Source: an uncultured Gammaproteobacteria bacterium
GTDB taxonomy: Bacteria; Patescibacteriota; Patescibacteriia; Magasanikbacterales; UBA922
Length of the DNA: 64,000 nucleotides
Direction: 5' to 3'
Assembly: GCA_965231005.1 (NCBI GenBank)
Contig: OZ246405.1
Span: 39,204-103,203 of the forward strand
Numbering within the stretch: the stretch's first letter is position 1; each line of letters starts with the position of its first letter. A program made the position numbers and the translations under genes. This document shows, in pieces, positions 3,224 through 60,385 of this stretch. The notes beneath the pieces are model-generated. The model ran no database searches. It was not told the DNA's origin and saw only the letters and a program-made list of their open reading frames with translations.

Positions 3224-3266
3224 CTTTCCCTAATCCCTGATTTCCGGTTTCCGATTTCTATTCCAG
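3224..3266. repeat. 8-bp tandem array (TTCCCTAATCCC TGATTTCC GGTTTCC GATTTCT) of the TAGTTTCC repeat family
   Basis: Shares the TTCCCTAAT core and TTTCC units with the arrays at 18448-18496 and 52615-52651. Confidence 0.5.
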
Positions 3267-5267
3267 AATTATCCCATCAATCGCCTTAAGAATCTTTTCT
3301 CCAGTAACAACATCTGTTGCTTCAACACGAACTTTTGAACTAAGCTGTGTTTGCCCAGCATTTACTTTGTGAAGTTTTACTTTAAACTGATATGCAAGCA
3401 CATCAAGCTCTGTTGGCATGGTTGGAATTGTCCAAATCAATTTATTTTTTTGTTCATCAACAGTAACTTTTCCAGCAGGAGGAACAAGTGTTGTTTTTTC
3501 ATCAAAACTTACATCTCCAAAAAAGTCAGCACTAATGTTCAAATCTTTAAGTTCATGAAAACTATTATTCAAGAGCCATGTCACTGTGTACATTTTTTGA
3601 TCATTTGGTTCTTTTTTCACATCTGCTCGAACTTCGAGTGAAAGGTCTGACTGAATAGTAAGACCTATGCTATTACTTGAAATAATTTCCTTTTTCGACC
3701 CGAGGTCGACCAGCCTCTGGCTGGCATCCACCTCACCATCGTACTGAACATCACCAAAAATCTTTCCTGTCCATGTTTCAAATGCTGCCAAGTCTGTTAC
3801 ATCACTTGTTTTTACTGGCAACTGAACATCAATAACAACAGACTCCCCTGGCGCAATACTTGCCAATTCTTTTACTTGTCGTTTATCCCATGTAATTTCT
3901 CCACGACGTGTTGTATCATCAAGTTGTTCACCACGGATGGTTCCATCTGCTGGATCTTCTACCTTTGCCCAATGTAAAATACTTTTCTTTTTGATCGATG
4001 GCGCATCAAATACAAGACGAACTTTTGCATTTTTTAATGTTGCTTCTCCAGCATTTTTTGTGACAACACTTACATTCAATTTTTCACCTGGCTCTACTGA
4101 AAGATCACCAACACTTCCATTGATAATGACAGTGGAGACAATTGTTGTTTCTACAAGTTTTAGATCAATAGATTCTTCTGCCAAGACAAATGCATCATCT
4201 ATCCCCTGTCCTTTTGCAATACCAAGAACTTTAGTTTTAAATGAAATCTCTTTTGCACCTTCTTCTGAGTCAAAACTTCCAACAATATTTACTTTAAACT
4301 CTTCATCAAAATCTTTTGTTGTCCATTGCAGCTCGTCTAAAGAATCACTTTCAGGAGTACTACTCTTTTTTGTAAAGACTTCTTCTCCTTCTACAACAAC
4401 TGCAATTCGTTCAATTGAATCTGGAAATCCATCTTCCTTTTTTACGCTTACAGTAAATGGCACGTCAGATCCTTGTGGGACTTCTTTTGGAATACCTATA
4501 GTAAAGGAAATTGGAGAATCAGTTGCTTTTGTATTTAGACTTGTTACTTTTTGAAATTCAGAACTAAAGTTTTCTGGGAAGTAATTTAAGAATACACGCA
4601 CTGATTGTGATTCTCCAAGACTTCCATGAAATGATCCAAAAATATCAATAATACCACCTTCGTCTGATTTGATTTCACCAAGATCCCATTTGTCTTTTGT
4701 ATTGTTGCTCGGCTCTACACTTGCACGATCAAACACAAATCCAGCAGGATAACGAACTTGCAATGTTGCATTGTTCAAAGAAATAGATTGTGTATTTCTG
4801 TATCGAATGCGATACTGCACTTCATCTCCTGCAACAACCTGCTCTTCTCCTGACACAGAAAGAATAACATCTTCTTCTGAAAATTTAGATGGTGACTGCA
4901 GCACAAAAAAACCAACCCATGCGACTGCACCAAGAAATACTAATGCAACAAAGAGAGTTAATAGTGCGCGAAATGTTCCTCTCCCTTTTCTTTTTTTAAA
5001 CTTTGTCATATCTGGCATGGATCCATCACTGTTCTCATAAATTTCTGTCAATTCTTTTTCAATCTTTTTTGAATACTCTTTTCGAGACAATGTTGCTTTT
5101 GAGCGTGACCGTGATGGTGTTTTTTTTGAAGCAGTCTTTGGTCTTTTTATTGTCTTTTTCTTAATTGAAGACCGTGAAGACGTAGGAGATAATTTCTTCT
5201 CTGTAAATGTTTTTCGGCTTCCAGAAGACTTCTTTGCTTTGCCTGTACTCTTCTTTTTTTCTGGCAT
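3258..5267 (-). CDS. membrane-anchored surface protein: Lys/Ser-rich basic N-terminal tail, one TM, large extracellular domain
   Basis: 669 aa; cytoplasmic K/R/S-rich 100 aa; hydrophobic segment ALLTLFVALVFLGAVAWVGFFVL; no recognisable catalytic motif. Confidence 0.55.
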   Translation of the reverse strand: MPEKKKSTGKAKKSSGSRKTFTEKKLSPTSSRSSIKKKTIKRPKTASKKTPSRSRSKATLSRKEYSKKIEKELTEIYENSDGSMPDMTKFKKRKGRGTFRALLTLFVALVFLGAVAWVGFFVLQSPSKFSEEDVILSVSGEEQVVAGDEVQYRIRYRNTQSISLNNATLQVRYPAGFVFDRASVEPSNNTKDKWDLGEIKSDEGGIIDIFGSFHGSLGESQSVRVFLNYFPENFSSEFQKVTSLNTKATDSPISFTIGIPKEVPQGSDVPFTVSVKKEDGFPDSIERIAVVVEGEEVFTKKSSTPESDSLDELQWTTKDFDEEFKVNIVGSFDSEEGAKEISFKTKVLGIAKGQGIDDAFVLAEESIDLKLVETTIVSTVIINGSVGDLSVEPGEKLNVSVVTKNAGEATLKNAKVRLVFDAPSIKKKSILHWAKVEDPADGTIRGEQLDDTTRRGEITWDKRQVKELASIAPGESVVIDVQLPVKTSDVTDLAAFETWTGKIFGDVQYDGEVDASQRLVDLGSKKEIISSNSIGLTIQSDLSLEVRADVKKEPNDQKMYTVTWLLNNSFHELKDLNISADFFGDVSFDEKTTLVPPAGKVTVDEQKNKLIWTIPTMPTELDVLAYQFKVKLHKVNAGQTQLSSKVRVEATDVVTGEKILKAIDGIILE

Positions 5268-17239: not shown

Positions 17240-17328
17240 TGCTCAGGAGAGGACTTGAACCTCCACAGGAAAAAATTCCCACAAGGCCCTCAACCTTGCG
17301 CGCCTGCCTGCCGGCAGGCAGGTCTACC
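17240..17328 (-). pseudogene. 3' portion of a degenerate tRNA-Leu(GAG) paralog (D-loop GGTAGAC to acceptor end), interrupted by the 20-bp GC palindrome
   Basis: Minus strand reads GGTAGAC-[CCTGCCTGCCGGCAGGCAGG]-CGCGC AAGG TTGAGGG CCTTG ... GGAGGTTCAAGTCCTCTCC TGAGCA. The T-arm and anticodon loop are identical to the intact tRNA-Leu at 18199-18285. Confidence 0.5.
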
Positions 17329-17574
17329 AAATCTGTTTAATAAAGTTATTTTTATCCATTCCTTCCCTGATCCAGACTTTAGATATTTCTCCCGTTTTCT
17401 AGCTTCAATTCTTGTCGAATATTTTTCGTAATATATCAAAAGAAAAGGTCTGTAAAAACGTGTCACTCTTTCTTTTCCACGCTCATGTTCTAAAACCCGT
17501 CGCTCAAGGTCATTCGTTAGACCAACATAAATATAATTCTTTTGAAGACTTTTTAATACATACACATGGTACAT
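17290..17574 (-). CDS. GIY-YIG nuclease family protein
   Basis: YVYVLKS...YIYVGLTNDLERRVLEH GIY-YIG motif. The last ~8 codons (PACRQAGAQG) are encoded by the GC palindrome and tRNA fragment. Confidence 0.7.
   Translation of the reverse strand: MYHVYVLKSLQKNYIYVGLTNDLERRVLEHERGKERVTRFYRPFLLIYYEKYSTRIEARKREKYLKSGSGKEWIKITLLNRFGRPACRQAGAQG
17303..17322. repeat. perfect 20-bp palindrome CCTGCCTGCCGGCAGGCAGG (copy 1)
   Basis: Exact self-complementary 20-mer. Identical copies at 18312-18331 and 52500-52519. Confidence 0.8.
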
Positions 17575-18197: not shown

Positions 18198-18198
18198 G

Positions 18199-18285
18199 TG
18201 CGCAGGAGAGGACTTGAACCTCCACCCTGTATAACCAGGACCAGGCCCTCAACCTGGCGCGTCTACCGATTCCGCCACCTGCGCG
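18199..18285 (-). tRNA. tRNA-Leu (anticodon GAG), class II with long variable arm
   Basis: The minus strand reads GCGCAGG TG GCGG AATCGGTAGA CGCG CCAGG TTGAGGG CCTGG TCCTGGTTATACAGGGT GGAGG TTCAAGT CCTCT CCTGCGC A. All four stems pair. No encoded CCA. Confidence 0.85.
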
Positions 18286-18306
18286 TGTTTTGAATATTTT
18301 TTATTT

Positions 18307-18384
18307 TTAAATGTTGCGCGCCTGCCTGCCGGCAGGCAGGTCTACCAATGGAGTTTACCTGCCGGAGCTTTAGCGTAGGCAGGC
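18307..18384 (-). pseudogene. 5' portion of the degenerate tRNA-Leu paralog (acceptor GCTCAGG through the D-arm), containing two GC-palindrome-type insertions
   Basis: The minus strand reads GCTCAGG TG GC[CTGCCTACGCTAAAGCTCCGGCAGG]TAAACTCCATT GGTAGAC[CCTGCCTGCCGGCAGGCAGG]CGCGC. Acceptor GCTCAGG is complementary to CCTGAGC at 17241-17247. Confidence 0.45.
18312..18331. repeat. perfect 20-bp palindrome CCTGCCTGCCGGCAGGCAGG (copy 2); part of the 31-bp direct repeat GGTAGAC-palindrome-CGCGC shared with 17298-17328
   Basis: Exact match. Confidence 0.8.
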
Positions 18385-18389
18385 CACCT

Positions 18390-18496
18390 GAGCATATCTA
18401 GAAATTAAAAATTGGAAATCAGGGGTTAGGGAATACTGACAGTAATATCTTATTTAGTTCCCTAATTTCTAGTTTCTAGTTTCCAGTTTCCAATTT
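18390..18496. repeat. inverted pair of TAGTTTCC-family 8-mer arrays (GAAATTAAAAATTGGAAATCAGGGGTTAGGGAA ... TTCCCTAATTTC TAGTTTC TAGTTTCC AGTTTCC AATTTC) around a 24-bp core
   Basis: Read directly; left arm is the reverse complement orientation of the right arm. Confidence 0.6.
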
Positions 18497-18502
18497 CAAT
18501 TT

Positions 18503-19282
18503 TTAAAATCTTCTTCCCTTTCCAACAATCATCTTAATTCTACTCTTTGCCAATTTTATTGTAATCTTTGTTTCTTTTGATTCCTTTCCATCGGCCTGCA
18601 CAACAAAGGGTTTTGTGCTACTTACAATCATTTCTTCAAATGGGAACACACTTGGATCTTCGTATACTGGACGAATAATTTTCTTTCCAAGTACTGGACG
18701 TAAAAACGCTTCTAACTTTCCATCTTGCGGATGAACTGTTACACGATCCTGCTTTCTCATTCCTCTCCATTCAAATGGCTGTAAGTTACACACAACCAAT
18801 TCAATTTTTGCACCTTGTCGTGCCGATACTTTAAACCGTTCATCGTACTGCACAGTCACATCACTTGCAGGAATATGCAGACGAGAAATAAAATATCTAT
18901 TATTGAACCAACCTACATCTAACTTTACTTTTCTTCTTCGTGAAAGAACATCACATGCTTCTACACCAACTGGAATACCAAGCACATCTGCGATTGAGTT
19001 ATCCGATCCTATAGGGAGAAAACCAAAGAGCGTATCGCAAATTGCTGCGCGAGAAAGAACATGACCAAAGGTCTCATCATTTCCAACAATCACAATAGCG
19101 GTCGCGCCACGTTTTATTTCTTCCTCTACAATTGCATGTGCATTTGTATAGTTTTGAAGTCGGATTATTTTACCAGCAATACCAAAGTCTGTCAACCGTG
19201 TCTCCATGGTCTTAATGGTACTTGCAAACTTTTTTTGCTTTAAAAAGTTGTCGTATAAATATACGTACATAATAGATAACAA
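18503..19282 (-). CDS. diacylglycerol kinase catalytic-domain (YegS/DagK-like) lipid kinase
   Basis: IVIVGNDETFGHV and LPIGSDNSIADVLGIP motifs of the DAGK_cat / NAD-kinase-like fold. Confidence 0.6.
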   Translation of the reverse strand: MLSIMYVYLYDNFLKQKKFASTIKTMETRLTDFGIAGKIIRLQNYTNAHAIVEEEIKRGATAIVIVGNDETFGHVLSRAAICDTLFGFLPIGSDNSIADVLGIPVGVEACDVLSRRRKVKLDVGWFNNRYFISRLHIPASDVTVQYDERFKVSARQGAKIELVVCNLQPFEWRGMRKQDRVTVHPQDGKLEAFLRPVLGKKIIRPVYEDPSVFPFEEMIVSSTKPFVVQADGKESKETKITIKLAKSRIKMIVGKGRRF

Positions 19283-35182: not shown

Positions 35183-35190
35183 TCAAAATA

Positions 35191-39848: not shown

Positions 39849-39892
39849 ATAGTATGCTTATCTTACACTAAATAAAAAATGTGTCAAGATTA

Positions 39893-40264: not shown

Positions 40265-41556
40265 TTAGGTGTGCACAAGTTGGGGAAGCATTCTTATAAC
40301 AATCCCCCAGTAAATGGCTGATAGCATAAGACCAATATATGAAGAAAATAGATAATGATCAAATGTACCTAAAACAAGGTAAATGATAGCAAAAAGAAAA
40401 ATCTCTTTTGAAAAACCTGATAAAGAAAGCCACGAATATATAACTCCACACAAAAGAACAATACCAATCACACCGACTTCTGCTAATAAGAGAAATCCAA
40501 CATTATGAACTGGTTGGTATGCCCAACCAGGCAATCCAGGATGATTTATCGCGAGGGCCAAAGAATAGTTCCCTATTCCAACACCGACTAATGGATTATT
40601 TTTTATCAATGCAAAAGATTCTTCATAACCAGAAATTCTTTCTTCCACTGATTTTATTTCTAAACGCGAATCAGGAAAAAATCTTGTTTGTACAATTGGA
40701 AGATACAAAAGGGTAAGAATAACGAACACTCCAACTCCAATAATAATTGGACGTAAGAATTTTTTCCCATACATGATTAGCAACCCCACAAAGCAAACAA
40801 GAAGTGCGAGCCATGCAGAACGACTGAACGTGAAAAATAATGATATCAATAATATGAAATAACAAATATTGGATAATAAATGATTTTTCTTGTTTTTAAG
40901 AAACATGAGTAAGAAAAGTATAATTGCAATAACTAAAAAACCACCAAACACATTTGGATGAGTAAATCCTCCATACGCACGCAACACTCTACCAATTGCA
41001 TTTCCTGCTACCACAGCCGTTCCTGGTTCAGCAACAACATGAGATGATGTCCCAAGTATTGTCGAAACAAATGTTGACTGGGAAATAAACTGCCAAATAC
41101 CAAGAACACCTTGCACAACTGCACCAAACACAAACCATCTCATAATCTTTTGAAGATCAATTGGTCCAATCAACAGAAAAAGAAACAATAATGCTGCTTC
41201 CATAATACGAAGTGCTTGTTGTTGTGCGACATCTACATTTATTGACCAAAATACAGAAAAGAAAATATATAATAAAAAAATAAAAACACTCAATATAAAC
41301 ATTCTATCCTTTGTCAGATAAAATTCATTCTTTCTTATTTGAGAACCTCTCTTCTTCCAATACCAAAAAAAGAAAAAAACTAATAACATCCATAACAAAA
41401 ACTCTGTTGCATAAAATCCAAGTGTTGCATACTCCAGCTTTGCTCCATTCAAAATATATTCATTGTATATCCAAATCGTATGCCATGGGAGAAGGAAGAC
41501 AAATAGATTGATGGACCACTGTAATAAAGTTTCTATTGAAATTTTTCTTTTGTTTA
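40265..41556 (-). CDS. O-antigen ligase/polymerase-like (Wzy_C family) polytopic membrane protein
   Basis: ~10 TM helices with a large periplasmic loop. Start placed at MNIINKRK (ATG at 41556), which is preceded by a GAGGTT SD-like sequence. Confidence 0.5.
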
Positions 41557-41685
41557 TAATATTCATATTAACTATAACCTCATTATACACCAAAAAAAGA
41601 GGTGATTGACAATAAAAATTAGCAATGCAATAATGAAAAAGCACTGGGGAATTCTGCCTCAGCAGCCACATCAAGGAGCAACATC

Positions 41686-45241: not shown

Positions 45242-45249
45242 CATAAATA

Positions 45250-45433
45250 AATAATTAACAATTAACAACTAACAATTAACAAATTTAATAGGGAAAGAAT
45301 ATTTAATACGAGTACGAGAACGATATCACTATCTATTATCTAATATAGAGAATAAATCAGATAAGACTGACGTCCTTTTCTAACAAAGCCTTTCTATACT
45401 AAGTTGCTAATTGTTAATTGCTAATTGTTTTTT
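45250..45433. mobile_element. MITE-like inverted-repeat element (TTGTTAA-array arms with a CTATACTAAGTTG core)
   Basis: Left TAATTAACAATTAACAACTAACAATTAACAAATTT; right CTTTCTATACTAAGTTGCTAATTGTTAATTGCTAATTG. The right-arm core is near-identical to 35371-35400. Confidence 0.5.
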
Positions 45434-45510
45434 GATTAAAGAAAAGCAGCTTTAGTAAGCTACTTTATTGTTAATATAATACCATATTATGTACGTTTTG
45501 TCAATAGCAA

Positions 45511-50827: not shown

Positions 50828-51546
50828 ATACGTTCTTTGGTAATTTCAAGATATCTTTTTTCAAGTGTTTTTCCCCCTTTTGTAAATTCTTCTTTCTTCC
50901 CAACAGCAACAAGCTTTCCATGATTGATAATTCCTATTCTGTCACAAAGATGTTCTACCTCTTCAAGATAATGAGAAGTAAACAAAATTGTTTTTCCTTC
51001 TTTATTAATTTTCTTTAAATATTCCCAAAGCTCATGTCGCAATTCTACATCAACACCTGCAGTCGGTTCATCAAGAATAAGAAGATCTGGATCATGCATC
51101 ATAGCGCGAGCAAGCATAACACGTCGTTTTAATCCACCAGACAATTCACGGAATTTCTTTTCTGCATGCGCTGTCAGTTCAAAAATCTCCAAGAGTTCTT
51201 TTATTCTTTTTTTCCGTTCTGATCGCTTTACTCCAAAAAAACCAGCATTAAACCAAAGAATATTTTTTACTTTTGCAAATACATCAACATTGTATTCTTG
51301 TGCAGAAATACCAATATTAAATCTGGCTTCTCTATAGTCTTTTTGAACATCTTTTCCAAAAAGTGTTATCGTGCCTTTTGAAAATTTTCCTACGCCAGTA
51401 ATACAACTTATGGTCGATGTTTTTCCAGCGCCATTTGGACCAAGAAAACCAAAAAATTCTCCTTTTGGAATTTCCAAATTTAAATTATCTACAGCAACAA
51501 AATCACCATATTGTTTTGTAAAATTTTTTATTTCTAAAGCTAACAT
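50824..51546 (-). CDS. ABC transporter ATP-binding protein
   Basis: Walker A GPNGAGKTS, signature LSGGLKRR, Walker B LLILDEPT. Confidence 0.85.
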   Translation of the reverse strand: MLALEIKNFTKQYGDFVAVDNLNLEIPKGEFFGFLGPNGAGKTSTISCITGVGKFSKGTITLFGKDVQKDYREARFNIGISAQEYNVDVFAKVKNILWFNAGFFGVKRSERKKRIKELLEIFELTAHAEKKFRELSGGLKRRVMLARAMMHDPDLLILDEPTAGVDVELRHELWEYLKKINKEGKTILFTSHYLEEVEHLCDRIGIINHGKLVAVGKKEEFTKGGKTLEKRYLEITKERI

Positions 51547-51549
51547 AAT

Positions 51550-51668
51550 AAAATGCTTTAAAGGCCATAAAAGCCATAAATGCTGTAAAAGCTCTTGTAT
51601 TAATCAATATCACACCAAGTAAAGCCTTTAAGGCCTTTATGGCTTTTAAAGCTTTTTCAGCCTTTTAA
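51550..51668. repeat. inverted pair of 9-bp periodic arrays (left reverse orientation 51550-51596, right forward 51621-51668) around a 25-bp core
   Basis: AAATGCTTT AAAGGCCAT AAAAGCCAT AAATGCTGT AAAAGCTCT ... AAAGCCTTT AAGGCCTTT ATGGCTTTT AAAGCTTTT TCAGCCTTTT. Confidence 0.6.
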
Positions 51669-52400
51669 GAACTGTTTTATTTTTCTCATTATTCTCCACT
51701 TCATAAGAGAACGAGTACTCAGATGTCCACCTTCTTTTAGAAACAACGTGGCAGAGCCAATATCTTTTGCAAATTGCTTTACAGGTTCTGGCAACACTAC
51801 TTCATCGTCTAGTGCATGGATAATCATAACTTTTTTTCCATCAATACGATCCTTTTGTGCAACTGGATTATAAAATGTACCTTCGCTTAACTTTTTCCAA
51901 TCTGCCATATCATATCTGTACCCTTGTCCAAATGATTTTTGCACTGTTTCTCCTAACCAATCAATTGGTTCATCTCGACTCTCTTGTGTCCAATCAACAA
52001 CAGGAGAAACGCAGATAATTTTTTTGACTCGTGGGTCTTTTGAAACAAGCATTGCAGCTGGACCGCCAAAACTGCTTCCAACAATGTATATTTCTGGTTT
52101 TTCAATCTTATATTCGGCTCCATCCCAAAGACTTATAAAAGATTTGTGAATACCATCAATAACATCAAGAATATCTTTTGTTGGTTCGTCTTTTAAAAAT
52201 GTACCACTACTTTCCCACGTTCCTCTGTACCTTGGAAAAAATGACCAATAGTTATTCTTATGCATCGCCATCATGGCACGCTTATTCCCTGGCAAACCTG
52301 GCATGCCTTTACAAAAAATCATCACCTTGTTTGATGGTTTCTGTGGAGGTAAAAATTCGCAAATAATGTCCTTTTTAAAACGCGTGCGTAGTGCGTGCAT
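51657..52400 (-). CDS. alpha/beta-fold hydrolase
   Basis: GSSFGG nucleophile elbow. Start moved to MHALRTRF (ATG at 52400) because the track N-terminal 20 codons are encoded by the TAGTTTCC-family repeat arm. Confidence 0.55.
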   Translation of the reverse strand: MHALRTRFKKDIICEFLPPQKPSNKVMIFCKGMPGLPGNKRAMMAMHKNNYWSFFPRYRGTWESSGTFLKDEPTKDILDVIDGIHKSFISLWDGAEYKIEKPEIYIVGSSFGGPAAMLVSKDPRVKKIICVSPVVDWTQESRDEPIDWLGETVQKSFGQGYRYDMADWKKLSEGTFYNPVAQKDRIDGKKVMIIHALDDEVVLPEPVKQFAKDIGSATLFLKEGGHLSTRSLMKWRIMRKIKQFLKG

Positions 52401-52404
52401 AAAA

Positions 52405-52651
52405 TCAGAAATTAGAAATTGGAAATTAGGGATCAAACTAGGAACAACTATATAGTACACAGATTACCAAGATAAAAACAGATTTACCAGGATCTGATCC
52501 CTGCCTGCCGGCAGGCAGGTGTGAAAATCCTGGTCGATCCTGGAAATCTGTGTACTATTTAATCGAAACTAGATAATATATAATTCGAAAATTTAAACTA
52601 AAACAACCTAATTTACTTCCCCAATTTCTAGTTTCTAATTTTTAATTTCCT
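52405..52651. mobile_element. compound nested palindromic element: outer arms are TAGTTTCC-type 8-mer arrays, inner arms CAGATTTACCAGGATC/GATCCTGGAAATCTG, centre is the perfect GC palindrome CCTGCCTGCCGGCAGGCAGG (52500-52519)
   Basis: Left arm CAGAAATTAGAAATTGGAAATTAGGGATC; right arm CCCAATTTCTAGTTTCTAATTTTTAATTTCC; additional pair GTACACAGAT/ATCTGTGTAC. Confidence 0.55.
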
Positions 52652-53134
52652 TCTTATATATGGATGCCAATAATGAACAAAAATTACTCCCAATACTATC
52701 CAGAGAAACATGTGCCAAATATCAGTGTGCCCATGAAGATTTAAAGCATTTTCACTATAGTCCCAAAGTCTTCTTCCAAAGAACCATAATCCAATAATTC
52801 CACCAATGTATTCAACAATTGTGAAAATAATTCCTGGCATAATTTCACGAAAAAACGCTGGAAACTTTTCTATAAGAGGCTGAGCTATTATTACAGCAAC
52901 TGCTCCACATCCATAAATAAGTGCAAACGGAACATACACTCCAAACGATATTGCCGCGCCCCCAAATACAAATTCCATTGGTCCTAAGCTCCAAATTGCA
53001 GAATCAATAAACCAACCAATAAATCCGTAAATAAAGAAAAAATAGATAAGAGATTTATAATATTTTTTTTGTTTTTTATTCATAGCAATAATCAAATAAT
53101 AACACAACATCGCCGTTTTGGCGATGTTGTTCAA
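52628..53134 (-). CDS. hypothetical polytopic membrane protein
   Basis: 4-5 TM helices. Confidence 0.45.
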   Translation of the reverse strand: MNNIAKTAMLCYYLIIAMNKKQKKYYKSLIYFFFIYGFIGWFIDSAIWSLGPMEFVFGGAAISFGVYVPFALIYGCGAVAVIIAQPLIEKFPAFFREIMPGIIFTIVEYIGGIIGLWFFGRRLWDYSENALNLHGHTDIWHMFLWIVLGVIFVHYWHPYIRRKLKIRN

Positions 53135-53147
53135 TTTGTACTAATTG

Positions 53148-53534
53148 TTATGCCCAGTATCCCATGTAACTAAGCCAAAGACCAATGATCAGAGTAAATA
53201 AAATTGCAAATCCAGTCCACCAAGATTTCTTTGCTTGTTTTTCAGACCAACGAATAAATGAGTCTGGCCACACCATAAAGATTATTCCTTTGATAACAGC
53301 TCCCCATCCAAATAAGGTAATAAGACCCTTGTAACTCCATTCCCAAATGTTGTGAACATTTACCATTAAGAGTCCAATAAGGAGTGCAAACATAGAAAAT
53401 GTCCAGACAGCCCCATCACTTTTTTTAAAATGAGCGACTAAATCCTTGTACATGTTTTTGTTTACAAGAAATGCAAGCGCAATCACTAAATAAAACGGAC
53501 CAAGGATGCGAGCGAGAAGCATTGATGTTTCCAT
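53148..53534 (-). CDS. hypothetical membrane protein
   Basis: Four TM helices. Confidence 0.45.
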   Translation of the reverse strand: METSMLLARILGPFYLVIALAFLVNKNMYKDLVAHFKKSDGAVWTFSMFALLIGLLMVNVHNIWEWSYKGLITLFGWGAVIKGIIFMVWPDSFIRWSEKQAKKSWWTGFAILFTLIIGLWLSYMGYWA

Positions 53535-53578
53535 AGTTACTTAAATTAAATAATGAATACAAACAAATCTGTTTTAGA

Positions 53579-53628
53579 TGAGAGCTTTTAAGGCCTTTTA
53601 AGCTTTTATAGCCTTTACGGCATTTTCT
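53579..53628. repeat. 9-bp periodic array (GAGCTTTT AAGGCCTTTT AAGCTTTT ATAGCCTTT ACGGCATTTT)
   Basis: Read directly; abuts the stop of the 1742-aa gene. Confidence 0.6.
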
Positions 53629-56600
53629 AGAACCAGTCCATTGCTTTTGTAACAAACATAAATGAGTTTGCAAGGGACTTCATAATCTTGAAGAATTGTG
53701 ATACTCCTGGTGTTTCGTCAAATGGAATACTTGAACCAAGAGAACTGAAACTTGTATTTACAGAAGAATCACTATTTGATGCACAGGAGCTTGATTCATA
53801 ACTGCTCCAGCAATATCCATTACACCATCCATAACCAGCACCAGTACAGTCTGATTCTGTGTAACAATAGTTGTAATTTGATGAACAATCTGTTGATGTC
53901 CACTGAGAACTGTCACCATTAGAAGAACTACTGCCAGAATTAGAGCCGCAGGAGCTTGATTCATAACTGCTCCAGCAATATCCATTACACCAACCATAGC
54001 CAGCACCAGTACAGTCTGATTCTGTGTAACAATAGTTGTAATTTGATGAACAATCACCAGATCCAAAAGTATTACTATCTGATCCACTACCACAGTCATT
54101 TGGACAACTTCCACTGCTCTCTCCTGATTCACAAGTTCCATCATTATCACATGCTGAAGAATATGAGTCTGACGATGTATATGAGCCTTCCTGACAGCCA
54201 GTTGGACAACCATTGTCATCCCACTTACACCACTTGTCAGATGAACTTCCGTATTTACAATCATCACAAGAATTTGGTGAGCTACATGTCACTCCTGCTT
54301 TTACACAGGAACCTGTTTGACTGTTGTACTCCCAGCCATCCCATTCACTACATGAAGTGGACCAACTATCCCCTGTTGAACCTGAACTAGTAGATCCTGA
54401 TGATGAACCAGATGAATCTGAACCTGAGCTGTGAGATCCAGATGTTGAACTTCCGCACCCCGTTGCACAGCCACTACTATCCCAAACACATCCATCAGCA
54501 CATAAAGTTGAGTCACAAATTTTATCACCAGTAAAATTATTATATTGATTCAACTTACATGCAGGAGGTGCCTTACAATCTTTTGGACAATTTTCAACTG
54601 TCTCCCCATCGTCACATGTAAAGTTGTAGTTACATGGATCCTTTGGCGGTTCTTCTACAGGTGGGACATAATCTTTGTACTTACATCCTTCAGAACTAAA
54701 CCATTTACATGATGACTGTGCAAAACATGAAGAGTCTGTTGAGTAATCATCACAGTTTACAGTGGTTGGATCTGGCGTCGTGCTTGTTTCAGATGGACAA
54801 TTATCTTCATGATAATTTGATCCGTTTGTTAGATAGCCAGGATAGTTATAATCACATTTTTTCTCATTATTTAACTGACAATATCGCACGCCTGCGCTAT
54901 CCCATCTACTGTACGCAAATCCTGGACACGAATCTTTATCACCTTCATATACTCCACCAGAACAGTCTGCATAACAAGATTCTTTTGTTTCTCCATTATC
55001 ACATGTGCCATTTCCACAAGAATTTCCTGAAGAATAATCCTGACAACCAGTTGGACAACCATTGTCATCCCACTTACATGTAAGACCAGAAGAAGATCCA
55101 TATTTACAACTGTCACAGGATTTTGGTGCACTACAGGTCACACCTTTTGTAATACATGATTCTGTTTCTTTATTATATTCAAACTTCTCACCACAAGAAG
55201 GTGTGCCACTACAATCACTACAACTATCATATGTTTCTCCTGAATCGCAAGAACCATTATAGTTACAACTACCATTTTCTACAAAGTCCTGAGGACAGTT
55301 TGTTGCATCATAGTTACTTCCATTTGTTAAATAACTTGGATAATTGTAATCACACTTGAATTCAGTATTTAGCTGACAATATCTTTTACCAGCTTTATCC
55401 CATTTACTATATGCAAATCCAGGGCAGGAATTCTCATCACCTTCATATTCAGTCTTCTTACAATCAGAAGCACATGTGTCTAATTCTCCTGGAGAGCAGA
55501 TATTATCTCCACAAACATAGTCGCTAGCCCCTCCTGTACAATTAGGTATACCAAATGTTTTCCAGTTTTTATCATTACCAGCATCTGGCATCCAATAAAA
55601 TTCTGATTTTACAATTTTTTTACACTCTGCTGCAATACCAACAATATAACTGTTGTATTCACTGTCAGTTCTATCTAGAATATATGACGATTCAGAATCA
55701 CCATCGTAGAAATACCATGTATATTTTACCCACGTAGGTTTGTCATCTTTTTTCTCTACTAAAATAACATCAAAATGATCTTTACACGCTTGAATCATTT
55801 TTTCTCCAGCATCAGTTCCTCTTGCTTCACAATGTGCTACACCCTCTTCATTTGAATACACTGTTATTCCATCTGGGAATGTGTATCTAAATGGATCTGG
55901 TTTTATTTCTTCATCTTTTTCACATCTATCTGGAATGGAACAACCTTTCTCATCAGTAGTATATACAGTATGTGTTCCTTCAGGACAATACAACATGGTT
56001 GTATAATTACATACCACTTCTTCTTTAATACATTCTCCAGGAATCCAACAGCCATTGTCACTTTTAACTGGCTCACGATAAAAACCAGGAGCACAAGGAG
56101 CTACATAATATTCTGGACAAGCTAAAATTTCTTTTTCTTCACATTTTTGAGTTTTAAAATTGTAATACTTTCCATATCCACAATCATAGTCCTTTGGTTC
56201 ACATTTGTTTAAATGATCATCATAGTAAAAACCATCATCACAATGCTTATAATCAAATGGAACACAGTCACGAGCTTTTTCATCCCATCGATATCCTTGT
56301 TTACAATCTATTGAAGTTGTTTTATGGCATTCTGGAGGATAAATAAACTTTGCTTCTGCTTCATCATAATATCCTTCACATTTGTCTTTTTGATCTGGGA
56401 CACAGTAAGAAAGATCATAATCCCAGTGCATTCCCCAACCACAATTTTTAAACTCTACTGGTGGAACATAATATGGATCTTTTACACATTGTTTTATTTT
56501 TGCATCATAGTAATGTCCAGGTTGACAATCTATAAGAAAATCATCATACGTGACACAATAGCCTAGTCCATAATCCCAGTACCCTGGTGGCTGACATTCA

Positions 56601-58855
56601 GGATGATCTTCAACTTGAATTGCCCACTCACATCCCTTTACACTAGAATTTGCTTTACAATATGCATCACATTCTTCAGGCGTTTTACATAGACCAGCCA
56701 AAGGATTATTCTCTCTGTGTTGAATTTGTTCTGACTCAATTCTATTACGTTCGCGGATCAAATCGTCTGCTAGGCGCTCTTTTTCATGACGTAAATCTTG
56801 TTCTATAAACTGAAGTTGAATTTGTTGACAGACATCGTCACACCACGGATCAAGTTTGAGACGTTCTTCGAAAATCTTCTTTTGCTCTTCATATTTTTTT
56901 GTTGCAATTTCGTATCTGTCGTCAATTTTCTCTTCCCACAATTTCTTACGCTCTTCAAAATCTTCCCAATCAACATCATTTAATTCTTCCCAAAATTTTT
57001 CTTCTTCTTTTCTTTGCTGTCTATCAAATTCATGATGAAGTTCTCTCTCACGAAAATCAAGGGAAGCTCGTGCTATATCTCTCTCCTTTTCAGCTCGTCG
57101 TTCTTCCATCTTTCTTCTCTTAAATTGGATAGCATCTTGGAACCCATCGTCATTATTTCTAATTTCATTAATCACAAAATCTGGAACATCAAAAAATCGT
57201 TCATGGAACTTGTCAAAATCTTCTGGCTCAACAATATCTTGCATATGTCGTTTGAACCGTTCAGCATTCTTTTTTGCAAACTCATCAACAAACGAATCTT
57301 CAAAGTGCAAATTCTCAAATACTGCTATGTCTTCTGGATCAAGAGTTGTAACACGATTCCAAAACTTATCTCCTTCTCTTTTGAATCGTTCTTCTGTCTT
57401 GTGTTGCATGTCTTGCTCAAGTTTTTCAAGAAATGCTCTTTTTGTTGGATCTGACTTTACTTCTTCTTCCAATTCTTGGAGAAGACGGAATGTTTTTGGC
57501 GTTGGATTTTTTGTCATTTCTTCAGAAAGTTTTCTAAACCGCTCTGCTTGATCTTGTGATTCTGAATCTTTAAATTCACTTACAAATGCATCCAAAGATT
57601 GTTTTTCATACTCTTCCATGATTCGGAATTCTTCTCTTTCTGAATCCATACGAGAACGGATATCACTCATCACATGAAGATCATTTACGTCTTCTCTATC
57701 AAAATTCTCAAAGAATGTTTCTCGAATACTCTCTAATTCAAGCTTTTCTTCAAAATTTCGTACAGCAATTTCTTTTGCTTCTTCTATTGCATCTATCATA
57801 TCGAGCGGAATTTCTGCATTTTGTTTAATATGCTCTAAAATACTCATGAGTCGAACCTCATCAGCACTTGCATGCTCAACATATTGCTCAAACTTATCTG
57901 CGCGAACAGCTGCTGGCAACTCTTTTATACTTACTTCAAATCGTTCAAGTGTTTTTCTTCGTGCGTTTTCAATTGCATCTTTTGCTGAATCTGGCACACG
58001 ATCATGAATTACTTCAAGTACCTCCAGATGTTTCAATTCTTTAAATTCAGATCCTGTTTCCTTTTCTAAAACCTCAGTAATACGATCACTCACATCTTCT
58101 GAAGAATCTTCAACTTCCAAAAGAACCTCTGTCAAATCTTCAATGGCTTCTTCTTTTGTCTCTTGGACTTTTGCAACAACTCGTTCAAGACCTCGCGCAG
58201 CATTTTCACCATCTTCTTGCTTTCTCTGTTCAATTTCCTCAAAAATTCCTTTTCCAATAGTATCTAAGAGTGTTCTCCCCTTTAATTGTTTTTCAGTGTA
58301 GTCATCTAAAAATCTTTCAACATCTTCTGGCTGTTCATCTTTTATGTCTTTGAGTCGTTCTGCTGTTCTAGATGCTGATCCAAGTCTTCTTTCAAACTGA
58401 TCAATCATATCAGCACGAATATTTTCAAATCCTTTTTCTTCTGCCAACTGGTGAACTTCTGCAAGATGTTGATTTGCATGCTTGAACTTTAACTCTGCAT
58501 CCTTTACAGGATCAAACGTGAAAAATTCCTGCATGTTCCAACCAAACCGTTTAAATGCATGAAGTGGACTATCTGGCAAAATACGTGCACGTACAGCATC
58601 TAAGTCTTCAGGCCTTACAAATTCATCTTTAAGAACTTCCGGAGGAGCCTCAGTCGACTCTGATGCCACTACAAGTTCTCCAGCAGTTTCTGTTGCATTT
58701 GCTTGACTAGCTTCATCAGTGGTTTGTGCATGAGCTGGCAATGCAATAAATAAAAACGCAGCAATTATGATGCTGCAAAAAAGAAAATAGCGGGCACGAA
58801 ACAAACAAACGATGAGAGAGTTTGTGTGCCATGCCTTATTCAGACGTAAAAACAT
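53627..58855 (-). CDS. giant secreted cysteine-rich repeat protein (1742 aa): signal peptide, ~650-aa Glu/Arg/Lys-rich helical region, then multiple Cys-rich modules
   Basis: Hydrophobic N-terminus. Repeated C(D/E)xGE(T)xxxCxxDC modules. Duplicated ~130-aa units (PGFAYSKWDKAGKRYCQLN.../PGFAYSRWDSAGVRYCQLN...). Near-identical tandem units DCSSNYNYCYTESDCTGAGYGWCNGYCWSSYESSSC at the C-terminus. Confidence 0.6.
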   Translation of the reverse strand: MFLRLNKAWHTNSLIVCLFRARYFLFCSIIIAAFLFIALPAHAQTTDEASQANATETAGELVVASESTEAPPEVLKDEFVRPEDLDAVRARILPDSPLHAFKRFGWNMQEFFTFDPVKDAELKFKHANQHLAEVHQLAEEKGFENIRADMIDQFERRLGSASRTAERLKDIKDEQPEDVERFLDDYTEKQLKGRTLLDTIGKGIFEEIEQRKQEDGENAARGLERVVAKVQETKEEAIEDLTEVLLEVEDSSEDVSDRITEVLEKETGSEFKELKHLEVLEVIHDRVPDSAKDAIENARRKTLERFEVSIKELPAAVRADKFEQYVEHASADEVRLMSILEHIKQNAEIPLDMIDAIEEAKEIAVRNFEEKLELESIRETFFENFDREDVNDLHVMSDIRSRMDSEREEFRIMEEYEKQSLDAFVSEFKDSESQDQAERFRKLSEEMTKNPTPKTFRLLQELEEEVKSDPTKRAFLEKLEQDMQHKTEERFKREGDKFWNRVTTLDPEDIAVFENLHFEDSFVDEFAKKNAERFKRHMQDIVEPEDFDKFHERFFDVPDFVINEIRNNDDGFQDAIQFKRRKMEERRAEKERDIARASLDFRERELHHEFDRQQRKEEEKFWEELNDVDWEDFEERKKLWEEKIDDRYEIATKKYEEQKKIFEERLKLDPWCDDVCQQIQLQFIEQDLRHEKERLADDLIRERNRIESEQIQHRENNPLAGLCKTPEECDAYCKANSSVKGCEWAIQVEDHPECQPPGYWDYGLGYCVTYDDFLIDCQPGHYYDAKIKQCVKDPYYVPPVEFKNCGWGMHWDYDLSYCVPDQKDKCEGYYDEAEAKFIYPPECHKTTSIDCKQGYRWDEKARDCVPFDYKHCDDGFYYDDHLNKCEPKDYDCGYGKYYNFKTQKCEEKEILACPEYYVAPCAPGFYREPVKSDNGCWIPGECIKEEVVCNYTTMLYCPEGTHTVYTTDEKGCSIPDRCEKDEEIKPDPFRYTFPDGITVYSNEEGVAHCEARGTDAGEKMIQACKDHFDVILVEKKDDKPTWVKYTWYFYDGDSESSYILDRTDSEYNSYIVGIAAECKKIVKSEFYWMPDAGNDKNWKTFGIPNCTGGASDYVCGDNICSPGELDTCASDCKKTEYEGDENSCPGFAYSKWDKAGKRYCQLNTEFKCDYNYPSYLTNGSNYDATNCPQDFVENGSCNYNGSCDSGETYDSCSDCSGTPSCGEKFEYNKETESCITKGVTCSAPKSCDSCKYGSSSGLTCKWDDNGCPTGCQDYSSGNSCGNGTCDNGETKESCYADCSGGVYEGDKDSCPGFAYSRWDSAGVRYCQLNNEKKCDYNYPGYLTNGSNYHEDNCPSETSTTPDPTTVNCDDYSTDSSCFAQSSCKWFSSEGCKYKDYVPPVEEPPKDPCNYNFTCDDGETVENCPKDCKAPPACKLNQYNNFTGDKICDSTLCADGCVWDSSGCATGCGSSTSGSHSSGSDSSGSSSGSTSSGSTGDSWSTSCSEWDGWEYNSQTGSCVKAGVTCSSPNSCDDCKYGSSSDKWCKWDDNGCPTGCQEGSYTSSDSYSSACDNDGTCESGESSGSCPNDCGSGSDSNTFGSGDCSSNYNYCYTESDCTGAGYGWCNGYCWSSYESSSCGSNSGSSSSNGDSSQWTSTDCSSNYNYCYTESDCTGAGYGWCNGYCWSSYESSSCASNSDSSVNTSFSSLGSSIPFDETPGVSQFFKIMKSLANSFMFVTKAMDWF

Positions 58856-60245: not shown

Positions 60246-60385
60246 AAAAGCTCTAAATGCCGTAAAAGCTTAAGAAGCCTAAAAGGCAAAAAAACCTGTT
60301 ACTCATGCAGGTTTTTTGCTTTAACAAACACTATTAGCCAGCCTTTATGGCTTTTATAGCATTTAAAGCCTCTTGCCGCGTGGAT
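60246..60385. repeat. inverted pair of 9-bp periodic arrays flanking an intrinsic terminator (ACCTG-ttactcatg-CAGGT + T6 at 60289-60317)
   Basis: AAAAAGCTCT AAATGCCGT AAAAGCTTA AGAAGCCTA AAAGGC ... CCAGCCTTT ATGGCTTTT ATAGCATTT AAAGCCTCTT. Confidence 0.55.

Follow-up and report, generated by a model that had tools for sequence, protein, structure and literature searches.

A 247-bp nested spacer hairpin in a CPR genome, centred on a 20-nt palindrome that marks GIY-YIG/tRNA cassettes

Small dispersed repeats (SDRs) of Nostoc and related cyanobacteria are reportedly near-identical, hairpin-forming, non-coding units of about 20-27 nt. They are said to be dispersed, often within tandem heptamer arrays, and nested in copies or other small elements, with no obvious transposase. 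To our knowledge, SDRs have been reported only from heterocyst-forming cyanobacteria, and we know of no enzyme identified for them. Rickettsia palindromic elements (RPEs) are palindromic selfish DNA of 100-150 bp from one genus, found in-frame in protein genes and also in RNA genes. The GC clusters of yeast, palindromes of the fungal mitochondrial kind, are suspected to move by a mechanism not yet known. STRR heptamer repeats of cyanobacteria and the BIME, ERIC and Correia elements are intergenic repeats with tandem 7-nt units or inverted arms that form RNA hairpins. Passages of PMC5861425 and PMC1779305 mention the Nostoc SDRs (Elhai et al. 2008, Genome Res 18:1484) and cite RPEs, respectively. 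REP/REPIN sequences and RAYT genes form an autonomous/non-autonomous pair, the palindromes being found chiefly between genes of the same orientation and forming folds at the RNA level (PMC3116915, PMC3733652). Fungal mitochondrial genomes with GC palindromes also carry mobile GIY-YIG or LAGLIDADG endonuclease genes (PMC7218506), and SegB of phage T4 spreads itself and neighbouring tRNA sequence by cutting DNA of the tRNA region (PMC2330249).

The 20-nt palindrome CCTGCCTGCCGGCAGGCAGG, which lies at the centre of a spacer hairpin in the 64-kb stretch of DNA analysed here (the window), resembles each of these systems in part. Like SDRs, it is a hairpin-capable, near-identical dispersed unit that is embedded in arrays and nested in itself. 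Unlike SDRs, it has hosts among CPR, Bacteroidota, Omnitrophota, Planctomycetota and others, with no cyanobacterium among the hosts listed for the exact 20-mer; it shows tight linkage to tRNA genes and a GIY-YIG gene, lies in-frame in protein-coding genes as well, and appears to differ in sequence from SDR1-8. With REP/REPIN-RAYT systems (PMC3116915, PMC3733652) it shares a short, dispersed, GC-rich palindrome and a nuclease gene flanked by the cognate palindrome. However, its associated enzyme is a minimal GIY-YIG domain whereas RAYT is a Y1 HUH transposase, it is identical across phyla whereas REPs are species-specific, and, being a perfect palindrome, it lacks the unpaired GTAG or CGTC tag of REP type as well as any conserved flank, and lies inside genes and tRNA fragments. 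It survives in-frame in otherwise conserved proteins and occurs in RNA genes as RPEs do, but is 20 nt long (net 21 nt in genes) and spans phyla. The GC clusters and palindromic microsatellites of fungal mitochondria (PMC7218506) are likewise short GC-rich palindromes in AT-rich spacers, but they are organellar, have other sequences and have no reported fixed linkage to one endonuclease family or to tRNA duplications. The lodging of a GIY-YIG gene among tRNA genes recalls SegB (PMC2330249); however, SegB is a full-length phage enzyme with a DNA-binding part, whereas the putative nucleases of the cassettes described below are catalytic-domain-only, chromosomal, and accompanied by a partial tRNA duplication and the palindrome. 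The short-period arrays of the window resemble STRR/BIME-type repeats in having tandem 7-nt units in spacers and inverted arms that give long RNA hairpins, and differ from STRR, BIME, ERIC and Correia repeats in that both arms are tandem 7-, 8- or 9-nt arrays that abut stop and start codons in a CPR genome. In the literature searched, we found no publication on the exact 20-mer, LPAGRQ (the peptide that it encodes), UPF0213, COG2827 or YhbQ, and none on GIY-YIG proteins with tRNA, palindromes or Patescibacteria.

The hairpin consists of three concentric inverted repeats around the palindrome (52402-52648, 247 bp) and makes up the filling of a 227-bp spacer flanked by two minus-strand genes, one CmpB-like and one for a hydrolase. 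Its parts and neighbours are:

51657..52400, minus strand: downstream gene for a 247-aa S9-family alpha/beta hydrolase; true start codon, ATG, at 52400
52402..52432: outer layer, left arm (hydrolase side); heptamer array of GAAATTR x4 then GGGA (period 7, 4.0 copies)
52438..52473: middle layer, left arm, 36 nt, from an inverted-repeat search
52486..52495: inner 10-bp stem, left strand ACCAGGATCT, directly beneath the palindrome
52500..52519: centre, a solo copy of the perfect 20-nt palindrome CCTGCCTGCCGGCAGGCAGG
52525..52534: inner 10-bp stem, right strand AAATCCTGGT, from the inverted-repeat search and the fold
52537..52572: middle layer, right arm, 36 nt, from the inverted-repeat search
52573..52617: asymmetric AT-rich segment that separates the middle and outer right arms; mostly unpaired, with nothing on the left to match it
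52618..52648: outer layer, far arm; inverted heptamer array
52628..53110, minus strand: upstream gene, CmpB-like membrane protein (PF06541), 160 aa

The outer left arm terminates 1-2 nt ahead of the hydrolase start codon (52400..52398), and the far arm includes the stop codon (52630..52628) and the final seven codons of the CmpB-like gene; the C-terminal tail RKLKIRN of that protein is encoded by the array. The initial annotation had read three nested layers with an 8-mer arm unit from the letters of this spacer. In pairwise alignment the arms do align as reverse complements (84% complementarity for the outer arms of 31 nt each and 78% for the middle arms, around a perfect centre), so the layers are real; the arm unit, however, has a period of 7 nt according to Tandem Repeats Finder. 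The same annotation took the N-terminus of a longer hydrolase ORF to be bogus, and this is borne out by homologues of 246-253 aa, which span 99-100% of the 247-aa version starting at ATG 52400, whereas a 267-aa ORF starting at GTG crosses the left arm. The middle arms contain the perfect pair GTACACAGAT (52455-52464) and ATCTGTGTAC (52546-52555), and the motif CAGATT(T)ACCARGAT, of which there are two direct copies, occurs once in the left one. The middle-layer motif is locus-specific, with no second copy in the 64-kb window. Further in, CAGATTTACCAGGATC (52479-52494) pairs with GATCCTGGAAATCTG (52536-52550) with one 1-nt bulge, and the 20-mer occupies the apical loop of an inner hairpin, about 70-100 nt from either array arm.

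Folding of the spacer yielded structures beyond chance both as minus-strand RNA (-96.1 kcal/mol against -51.6 +/- 4.2 for shuffled sequences; z = -10.6, with 0/200 shuffles equal) and as DNA (z = -7.7). When the 20-mer was deleted in silico the hairpin still formed, with the insertion site in a 9-nt apical loop; comparison of the folds with and without it shows that the 20-mer contributes 17.5 kcal/mol to the stability of the hairpin. Neither strand of 52300-52760 has a terminator-like site (a short GC-rich stem-loop plus U-tract), and a promoter scan of the spacer detected no promoter-like site. The sole match in an Rfam 15 scan of 51000-54000 was a chance miRNA in another spacer (51557-51641; E = 0.13, well under threshold). 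Neither the palindrome variants nor the outer arms showed a strand-specific tolerance of G-U pairs; a hand count of wobble pairs in the outer arms gave three on the plus strand and two on the minus strand.

Contigs of two sequencing runs (L001 and its sister sample, L123) agree in every base of the spacer, and a third contig, from the Logan assembly (L002), covers it in part, its first base lying 7 nt ahead of the 20-mer. In the search for an empty site, a scan of metagenomes yielded no close relative of the hydrolase. In the nearest relative (L124-L127; 66% protein identity) the upstream gene is another one, and the spacer at the homologous position measures 44 nt and holds a plain hairpin; this shows only that the 247-bp structure is lineage-specific. 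No empty allele of the 52.5-kb spacer was found, L123 being identical and the nearest relative too distant, and we therefore infer the insertion of the 20-mer at 52500 by analogy with other loci.

The outer layer is one of at least nine inverted short-period array hairpins in the window, which are listed here with one further heptamer-family feature:

3239..3258: lone heptamer-family arm, directly beyond the stop codon of the ORF at 3258..5267
5336-5460: inverted array
18391-18514: inverted array, which contains the second heptamer-family hairpin (18394..18504), without the 20-mer; the far arm holds the stop codon of a DAGK-like gene and the near arm abuts the 5' end of a pseudo-tRNA
30394-30483: inverted array
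35185-35416: inverted array, doubly nested
39892-40054: inverted array
42964-43027: inverted array
45243-45438: inverted array
51549-51667: inverted array
52402-52648: inverted array, the spacer hairpin described above

The units of these hairpins are 7, 8 or 9 nt long, and many spacers of the window are filled in this way: there are 25 arrays of period 7-9 in the 64-kb window against a median of 0 over 242 other loci. At 52.5, 51.6 and 35.2 kb the far arm takes in the upstream stop codon, and 1-3 nt separate the near arm from the start codon that follows; the hairpin at 18.4 kb has the same geometry, with a pseudo-tRNA standing in for the start codon. The heptamer-array pattern has 12 matches in the window (0.84 expected), all at 18401-18504 and 52401-52649. 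The initial annotation had assigned the outer arms at 52.5, 18.4 and 3.2 kb to one family, and all five arms indeed align to (GAAAYYR)n-GGGAA. It also had the arms at 18.4 kb flank the tRNA/palindrome region; they are adjacent to it but do not enclose it, since the hairpin at 18394-18504 only adjoins the region. The interior of this hairpin is different from, and shorter than, that at 52.5 kb. The host genome is AT-rich, of the Parcubacteria type and largely without Shine-Dalgarno (SD) sites, with one before only 3/48 genes. The missing SD before array-preceded genes is uninformative as a signal because 45/48 genes lack one anyway.

Three copies of the 20-mer occur in the window (starting at 17303, 18321 and 52500), where none is expected. 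The exact sequence was found at more than 120 genome loci in CPR, Bacteroidota, Omnitrophota, Planctomycetota and others, in RefSeq isolates as well as MAGs from many studies and with unrelated flanks, and on 35 stretches of viral contigs. Winogradskyella echinorum KCTC 22026, Flagellimonas yonaguniensis and Longitalea luteola are among the carriers that can be cultured. A 7-mer enrichment test on the 60-nt flanks gave nothing convincing, and positions -1/+1 have a weak A/T bias. An apparent shared flank motif, CACAGAT (window, L025 and L027), did not hold up. Arrays of 5-12-nt units (mostly 7-9 nt) contain 24/167 copies (14.4%) and 71/7750 random positions (0.9%), a 16-fold difference which indicates that arrays and palindrome are associated, as target or as neighbour. 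The array units that host the 20-mer differ from genome to genome. Copies are also nested in other copies (L044, L020 and L023).

The 20-mer also lies in genuine coding sequence, in-frame and read as LPAGRQ, in FtsK-like, GatB-like, RmlB-like and other ORFs. Compared with PDB homologues, the GatB-like and RmlB-like proteins have seven extra residues at the LPAGRQ site, and the net gain in protein genes is 21 nt. In tRNAs, empty-site comparisons (tRNA-Leu #1 against #2 in the window; L039, L108 and L120) show a net gain of exactly 20 nt and no target duplication. Solo copies were not enriched in predicted hairpin loops in a minimum free energy fold test (30% vs 27%, p = 0.31), whereas a test for flanking stems of at least 7 bp found a modest enrichment (19% vs 7%). 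We dropped the claim that solo copies always occupy hairpin tips because the fold test was non-significant. Given this null result and the modest stem enrichment, targeting of hairpin tips by the 20-mer is weak for solo copies in general; for tRNA fragments it is well supported.

The other two copies in the window sit in tRNA-Leu fragments around a GIY-YIG ORF, in a cassette at 17.2-18.4 kb that lies 34 kb from the spacer hairpin:

17240..17302, minus strand: 3' part of a disrupted tRNA-Leu(GAG), #2, which abuts the 20-mer at 17303-17322; then a terminator hairpin
17290..17574, minus strand: 94-aa ORF, GIY-YIG catalytic domain only; towards its 3' end the frame continues across TTGGTAGA and the 20-mer at 17303-17322
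18198..18284, minus strand: intact tRNA-Leu(GAG), #1, inside the cassette, with no palindrome at the homologous GGTAGA/CGCGC site
18321..18340: third copy of the 20-mer, at the D-loop position of the 5' part of tRNA-Leu #2 (18341-18393, minus strand)

Direct repeats of 35 bp (17296-17330 and 18314-18348) bracket a 1018-bp segment which contains the intact tRNA-Leu, a lipoprotein ORF and the GIY-YIG ORF. The intact tRNA-Leu has no palindrome and so serves as the empty-site reference. The two acceptor-stem halves of tRNA-Leu #2 match each other, and ARAGORN makes no call even when the gene is rebuilt minus one or both palindromes; it is a decayed pseudogene, and the remnant holds a second palindrome at 18358-18383. 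The 94-aa protein matches PF01541 (E = 3e-15) and the PDB UPF0213 proteins 1ywl and 1zg2, resembling this uncharacterised family; its match to a group I intron endonuclease model is weak and partial (18.5 bits against a cut-off of 56). These GIY-YIG proteins (80-95 aa) are all catalytic domain, with no recognisable DNA-binding domain, and a tblastn search against plasmids gave no match.

We examined the link between nuclease and palindrome in both directions. Starting from the palindrome, about 125 copies include 4-5 that lie within 150 nt of a GIY-YIG ORF and share one architecture; for most solo copies there is no such gene within 8 kb. Starting from the nuclease, 38/80 metagenomic loci that code for relatives of the 94-aa protein contain the exact 20-mer and 58/80 contain it with at most three mismatches. 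A tRNA gene starts within 120 nt downstream of the GIY-YIG ORF at 55/80 loci, and 47/54 upstream copies of the 20-mer end 12-35 nt ahead of the ORF. The palindrome at these loci lies in the loops of a partial tRNA copy adjoining the ORF, at positions 14-15 or 21-24 (the sides of the D-loop), at 31-32 (the anticodon loop) or in the T-loop, and the duplicated tRNA segment stops at about nt 27-37. Remnants derive independently from tRNA-Leu (four anticodons), tRNA-Arg, tRNA-Lys and tRNA-Gly; tandem GIY-YIG cassettes occur at L151, L165, L164 and L160, and insertion has affected many different tRNA species. The 20-mer is a hallmark of cassettes composed of a GIY-YIG gene, an intact tRNA gene and a partial tRNA copy that bears the palindrome. 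From this association we infer that the nuclease may mobilise the 20-mer.

Our preferred reading of the spacer, to which we assign a probability of roughly 0.6, is that it is a stack of three independent layers whose core is a solo micro-element tied to GIY-YIG cassettes. The outer arms are one case of a genome-wide habit of inverted 7-, 8- or 9-nt arrays in spacers, and the middle hairpin is a layer unique to this locus. The 20-mer may be a non-autonomous micro-element that is spread by the machinery of the GIY-YIG cassette, or left as its footprint, and that enters DNA extruding as hairpins or slipped repeats. A self-complementary insert at the tip of a hairpin would lengthen the hairpin without disrupting it, so that such spacers would accumulate concentric layers. 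In mRNA, the spacer would form one long stem-loop which brings the upstream stop codon near the downstream start codon; this stem-loop may most simply be tolerated, or may act as an intercistronic stabiliser or translational-coupling device. Extending this reading beyond the locus, we tentatively put forward, at less than even odds, that CCTGCCTGCCGGCAGGCAGG could be the cognate DNA of mobile elements of a hitherto unrecognised class. Their GIY-YIG nuclease, a catalytic domain and no more, would colonise tRNA genes by partial duplication and in trans would seed or leave 20-nt palindromes in hairpin loops, slipped tandem arrays and protein genes. Nuclease and palindrome would make up a pair of the REP/RAYT type with another enzyme fold, moving among at least eight bacterial phyla and their viruses and adding to the concentric growth of spacer hairpins.

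The initial annotation had joined the arrays and the GC palindrome into one composite element type. What stands of this is the statistical association across genomes; as a unit it fails, and the corresponding reading, that the whole 247 bp is a single composite MITE with the heptamer arrays as terminal inverted repeats and the palindrome as body, is highly improbable. Its terminal inverted arms of 31 nt and its non-coding, MITE-like size (within 50-500 bp), the arms of the same family at two further sites and the enrichment of the 20-mer in short-period arrays would all fit. However, neither the unit nor its middle layer has another copy in the 64 kb, the borders (cataaaa/tcagaaatt and taatttcc/ttcttat) have no direct repeat that would mark a target-site duplication, and the arms, as tandem arrays, vary in copy number, unlike the fixed terminal sequences of MITEs. 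Only one of the at least nine array hairpins in the window contains the 20-mer, the 18.4-kb hairpin of the same arm family having another interior, and the contexts of the more than 120 other loci are unrelated, with no shared flank k-mer. It is also unlikely, if less so, that the spacer is a selected RNA device, for termination or stabilisation, for processing by a double-strand-specific RNase or for translational coupling, with the palindrome kept as a tip clamp. The very stable predicted fold, to which the 20-mer adds, and the placement of stop and start codons, repeated at three other spacers, speak for such a device; so does the scarcity of SD sites, since access to start codons in such a genome should depend on leader structure. 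Against it are the lack of a terminator-like site, promoter-like site or Rfam match, the absence of the structure from the homologous spacer of the relative, and outer-arm mismatches without strand bias to G-U, and the same geometry follows trivially from the insertion of a palindrome into a very short spacer. The RNA-device reading is compatible with the stack of independent layers.

We consider it rather unlikely that the 20-mer is independently mobile or recurrently generated and unrelated to the GIY-YIG enzyme. On this reading it would collect in tRNA remnants, tandem arrays and spacer hairpins because such DNA is neutral and prone to form hairpins, and cassettes would merely happen to create DNA of this sort. 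It would account for the many solo copies far from any GIY-YIG gene, for the two or more different palindromes often present in one tRNA remnant (L141, L150, L159, L171 and L200, as well as the window), and for other GC-rich palindromes at the same D-loop site (L041). It sits less well with the 20-mer or a near variant at nearly three quarters of the GIY-YIG loci and with the recurrence of the same few cloverleaf positions in remnants from different tRNA species, and no other candidate enzyme was noticed. Finally, palindromes can come from chimeric reads, and the break of the L002 contig so close to the 20-mer might be taken as a sign of an assembly or sequencing artefact (chimeric palindrome or adapter). 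This is refuted for practical purposes by the identical spacer in assemblies of two runs, by the 20-mer in RefSeq isolates and MAGs of many studies, by its in-frame position in coding genes and by the same tRNA positions in independent genomes.

Mobile DNA far under 100 nt is poorly understood. The present case links a unit of 20 nt physically to a single small nuclease family and to a single type of target, loops in tRNA genes. The question of how a 20-mer moves can therefore be put to a direct test that needs one protein and one oligonucleotide. Because it is conserved exactly across phyla, the palindrome could also serve to mark horizontal transfer. The spacer-filling inverted short-period arrays, with arms that reach stop and start codons, are a trait of CPR gene organisation not described before and may bear on gene expression in genomes without SD sites. 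For annotation, the 20-mer element has practical consequences: it makes pseudo-tRNAs, extends ORFs (the C-terminus of the GIY-YIG protein and the bogus N-terminus of the hydrolase) and adds LPAGRQ to essential proteins, such as the GatB-like and FtsK-like ones.

The spacer between a CmpB-like gene and an alpha/beta hydrolase gene is filled by a nested inverted repeat at 52402-52648. The three concentric layers described in the initial annotation are all present, and the region is arranged as follows.

52628-53110, minus strand: CmpB-like gene (PF06541), upstream of the structure
52402-52432 and 52618-52648: outer arms, 31 nt, 84% complementary
52438-52473 and 52537-52572: middle arms, 36 nt, 78% complementary, including the perfect pair GTACACAGAT / ATCTGTGTAC
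Within these: inner stems based on CCAGGAT / ATCCTGG
52500-52519: centre, perfect 20-nt palindrome CCTGCCTGCCGGCAGGCAGG (the 20-mer)
51657-52400, minus strand: S9-type alpha/beta hydrolase gene, downstream of the structure

Folding, proposed in the initial annotation as a check, is predicted to be strong: the minus-strand RNA reaches -96.1 kcal/mol compared with -51.6 +/- 4.2 in dinucleotide shuffles (z = -10.6), and the DNA fold has z = -7.7. The nested structure is well beyond chance. The spacer sequence is identical in L001 and L123, contigs assembled from two separate runs within one project, and is therefore no assembly artefact. When the 20-mer is deleted in silico the same hairpin still forms, with the 20-mer site as a 9-nt apical loop. 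No second copy of the middle layer was found within the window.

The far outer arm holds the stop codon and final seven codons of the CmpB-like gene, and the near outer arm stops 1-2 nt short of the hydrolase ATG at 52400. The suspicion that the left arm had been translated as a false hydrolase N-terminus proved right: the longer GTG ORF is spurious, and the 247-aa version is covered 99-100% by homologues of 246-253 aa. In a relative at 66% protein identity, the spacer ahead of the hydrolase gene measures 44 nt and contains an ordinary hairpin.

The window, a segment of a bacterial chromosome, has a GC content of 36% and carries almost all of its genes on the minus strand. Its proteins have homologues that their sources label as Liptonbacteria, Giovannonibacteria, Taylorbacteria, Ryanbacteria and Patescibacteria, and the window encodes a giant DUF5667 protein; we therefore took it as a Parcubacteria-type CPR member. 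A Shine-Dalgarno-like (SD) motif precedes only 3 of 48 window genes. Two genes upstream of the nested palindrome, a 1742-aa protein (53627-58855, minus strand) combines a DUF5667 region at its N-terminus with a long, repetitive C-terminal part rich in Cys and in Ser/Gly.

The outer arms belong to a family shared with the 18.4 and 3.2 kb regions, as initially annotated, and five arms (52.4, 52.6, 18.4, 18.5 and 3.2 kb) align to (GAAAYYR)n-GGGAA. The repeat unit had been given as 8 nt, whereas Tandem Repeats Finder gives a period of 7 nt. The arms had also been said to flank the tRNA/palindrome region; the same family does occur there (18394-18504), but this hairpin adjoins the region and encloses none of it, its near arm abutting a pseudo-tRNA. 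Inverted arrays with units of 7, 8 or 9 nt, in four unit families, fill intergenic spacers in the window, and include the following.

30394-30483, 35185-35416, 42964-43027 and 45243-45438: AAYTARC-type heptamer inverted arrays
39892-40054, 51549-51667 and 60246-60369: AAAGGCYWT-type nonamer inverted arrays
5336-5460: AAAGAAAT octamer inverted array

The hairpin at 35.2 kb is itself doubly nested. Array arms often reach the adjacent stop and start codons; at 51.6 and 35.2 kb the upstream stop codon lies within the far arm and the near arm is 2-3 nt from the next ATG. Arrays of period 7-9 number 25 in the 64-kb window, compared with a median of 0 over the 242 other loci of this analysis (genome, metagenome or viral; L-numbers). 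This density is unusual, and the outer layer is a recurrent habit of the window's genome. Between the nonamer hairpin near 40 kb and the stop codon of ORF 40265..41674, about 200 nt (40060-40264) contain no ORF of at least 80 aa and no Rfam match at the gathering threshold. On L132, an unrelated metagenome contig, a GAAAYYR-type heptamer array (GAAACTAGAAATCTAGAAATTG, about 1405-1430) lies immediately upstream of a pseudo-tRNA/GIY-YIG cassette, a layout that mirrors the window at 18.4 kb.

The central 20-mer occurs three times in the window (17303, 18321 and 52500), where none is expected. A scan of one genome per species (596 Gb) returned at least 120 stretches containing it, compared with about 0.5 matches expected arithmetically for a random 20-mer, and IMG/VR viral contigs added 35 more. 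The matches listed include CPR taxa (Parcubacteria, Saccharibacteria, WWE3, Uhrbacteria, Daviesbacteria), Omnitrophota, Chitinophagaceae, Flavobacteriaceae, Planctomycetota, Bdellovibrionales, Nitrospirota-like and other MAGs, and isolates of Winogradskyella, Flagellimonas, Longitalea and Flavivirga. Where an uninterrupted paralogue was available, the gain was exactly 20 nt and target duplication was absent. This is seen in the window, where tRNA-Leu #1 reads GGTAGA/CGCGC and fragment #2 reads GGTAGA-(20-mer)-CGCGC, and also in L039, L108 and L120. In genuine coding sequence the 20-mer translates as LPAGRQ and the ORF runs on at both sides; carriers include FtsK-like, GatB-like, RmlB-like and glycosyltransferase-like proteins, and at this site the GatB-like and RmlB-like proteins are 7 residues longer than homologues of solved structure. 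Such in-frame placement is a mark of selection and shows that the 20-mer is no artefact. Copies nested within other copies were found in L044, L020 and L023.

The other two window copies lie in a tRNA-Leu(GAG) gene (17240-18393, minus strand) that is split by a 1018-bp segment. In minus-strand order the cassette reads as follows.

18393-18341, minus strand: 5' part of tRNA-Leu(GAG), with a second hairpin insert at 18358-18383
Next: the 20-mer, then CGCGCAA
18284-18198, minus strand: intact tRNA-Leu(GAG)
Next: lipoprotein ORF
17574-17290, minus strand: 94-aa GIY-YIG ORF, its end reading through TTGGTAGA and the second 20-mer
17302-17240, minus strand: 3' remainder of the disrupted tRNA, then a terminator

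Direct repeats of 35 bp (TTGGTAGA, 20-mer, CGCGCAA) at 17296-17330 and 18314-18348 bracket the 1018-bp segment. The split gene is decayed; its acceptor-stem halves are complementary (GCTCAGG / CCTGAGC). The GIY-YIG protein matches PF01541 and PDB entries 1ywl and 1zg2 (uncharacterised UPF0213 family), and only the catalytic domain was recognised, with no DNA-binding domain. The hairpin insert in the pseudo-tRNA has the form CCTGCC-N14-GGCAGG with loop GGAGCTTTAGCGTA, and a similar GCTAAAGC-loop sequence adjoins the 20-mer in L046. GC content is 43-45% at 14001-18000, compared with about 36%; this stretch encodes RNase P RNA (14272-14668, plus strand) and a LuxR-type regulator (16745-17149), whose gene is one of the three with an SD-like motif, as well as the GIY-YIG protein, whose ORF was too short for the SD scan and has AAGGAG before its ATG, judged by eye.

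Three genome loci found via the palindrome (L039, L108 and L120) have one layout: a partial copy of the tRNA, from its 5' side and carrying the 20-mer in a loop, is followed by a GIY-YIG ORF and this in turn by the intact tRNA. L041 is arranged in the same way around a different GC palindrome. The decisive test of the link between palindrome and nuclease is the reverse one, from 80 metagenomic loci (L128-L207) picked solely for encoding a relative of the window GIY-YIG protein. A same-strand tRNA gene begins within 120 nt of the ORF end in 55 of the 80, mostly tRNA-Leu but also Arg, Lys, Gly, Met, Asn, Gln and Pro. The exact 20-mer is present in 38/80 loci, a number that rises to 58/80 when up to 3 mismatches are allowed. 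Of 54 upstream copies, 47 finish 12-35 nt ahead of the ORF. Within the tRNA copies the palindrome always occupies a loop of the cloverleaf, either the D-loop (one side at nt 14-15, the other at nt 21-24), the anticodon loop (nt 31-32) or the T-loop. The duplicated part of the tRNA starts at nt 1 and extends to about nt 27-37. Across all of these loci the cassette occurs in two orientations, the partial tRNA copy either preceding or following the ORF, and L151, L165, L164 and L160 carry tandem cassettes. The family to which the 20-mer belongs is one associated with genes for GIY-YIG proteins and for tRNAs.

The initial annotation had joined arrays and palindrome into one composite element type. 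Their co-occurrence is real as a statistical association: with the 20-mer removed in silico, 24/167 copies lie inside an array of period 5-12 (mostly 7-9) compared with 71/7750 random positions from the same loci, and a tandem array lies within 30 nt of 19% of copies compared with 2.4% of random positions. Arrays and palindrome do not form a composite element. Of the window's array hairpins, at least nine in number, a single one holds the 20-mer, two of the three window copies lie in tRNA fragments, array units near the 20-mer vary from genome to genome, and flanks compared across loci are unrelated, with no enriched common k-mer. The three layers have different distributions. As a whole, the reading given in the initial annotation is partly supported. 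Elhai et al. are said to have described a similar array association for cyanobacterial small dispersed repeats (SDRs) in 2008.

We propose that the 20-mer is a non-autonomous unit that is either deposited or left behind by the GIY-YIG cassette machinery. As a footprint, it could arise if the ORF were lost via recombination between the short duplicated tRNA segments, leaving exactly 20 nt. It would insert where DNA extrudes as a hairpin or as slipped repeats, and a self-complementary insert at a hairpin tip would keep the hairpin intact, giving concentric layers. Stems flanking solo copies are modestly enriched, solo copies in general show no enrichment in predicted hairpin loops, and most lack a neighbouring GIY-YIG gene. 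An empty allele of the 52.5-kb spacer was not found. The stop-in-arm, start-after-arm geometry, in a genome largely without SD sites, suggests start-codon masking, translational coupling or mRNA stabilisation; however, the same geometry results from a palindrome inserted into a very short spacer, and no terminator, promoter or Rfam signal was detected in this one. As for the 52.5-kb locus, it is probably a passive spacer hairpin built up in layers.

The 20-mer resembles cyanobacterial SDRs in size, nesting and heptamer arrays, REP/RAYT in the pairing of a palindrome with a nuclease gene that it flanks, and Rickettsia RPEs in in-frame insertion within genes. Fungal mitochondrial GC palindromes and phage T4 SegB, a GIY-YIG homing endonuclease within a tRNA cluster (PMC2330249), are also among the closest analogues. 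The element lacks defining features of each and we therefore place it in none of them. A literature search, with most subscription journals outside its range, found nothing on the 20-mer, the LPAGRQ insert or GIY-YIG/tRNA/palindrome cassettes. The locus reveals a widespread and apparently undescribed micro-palindrome/GIY-YIG/tRNA system, together with spacers of unusual architecture in a CPR genome.

On viral contigs L232 (2239-2330) and L209 (8616) the 20-mer sits at the variable-loop position of tRNA-Met, and in L232 the 92-nt sequence containing it is still called a tRNA by ARAGORN; the tRNA might tolerate a hairpin here in the manner of a long variable arm. Short palindromes of other families also turn up repeatedly in unrelated genomes, beside the 20-mer or at the same tRNA-remnant positions near GIY-YIG ORFs, which suggests a wider class of such units.

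L013 and L018: CCGCCAGCTGGCGG
L064 and L169: TCCCGATAGCTATCGGGA
L041: 33-nt CCCGCCCG...CGGGCGGG
L183 and L205: CCATAATTAATTATGG
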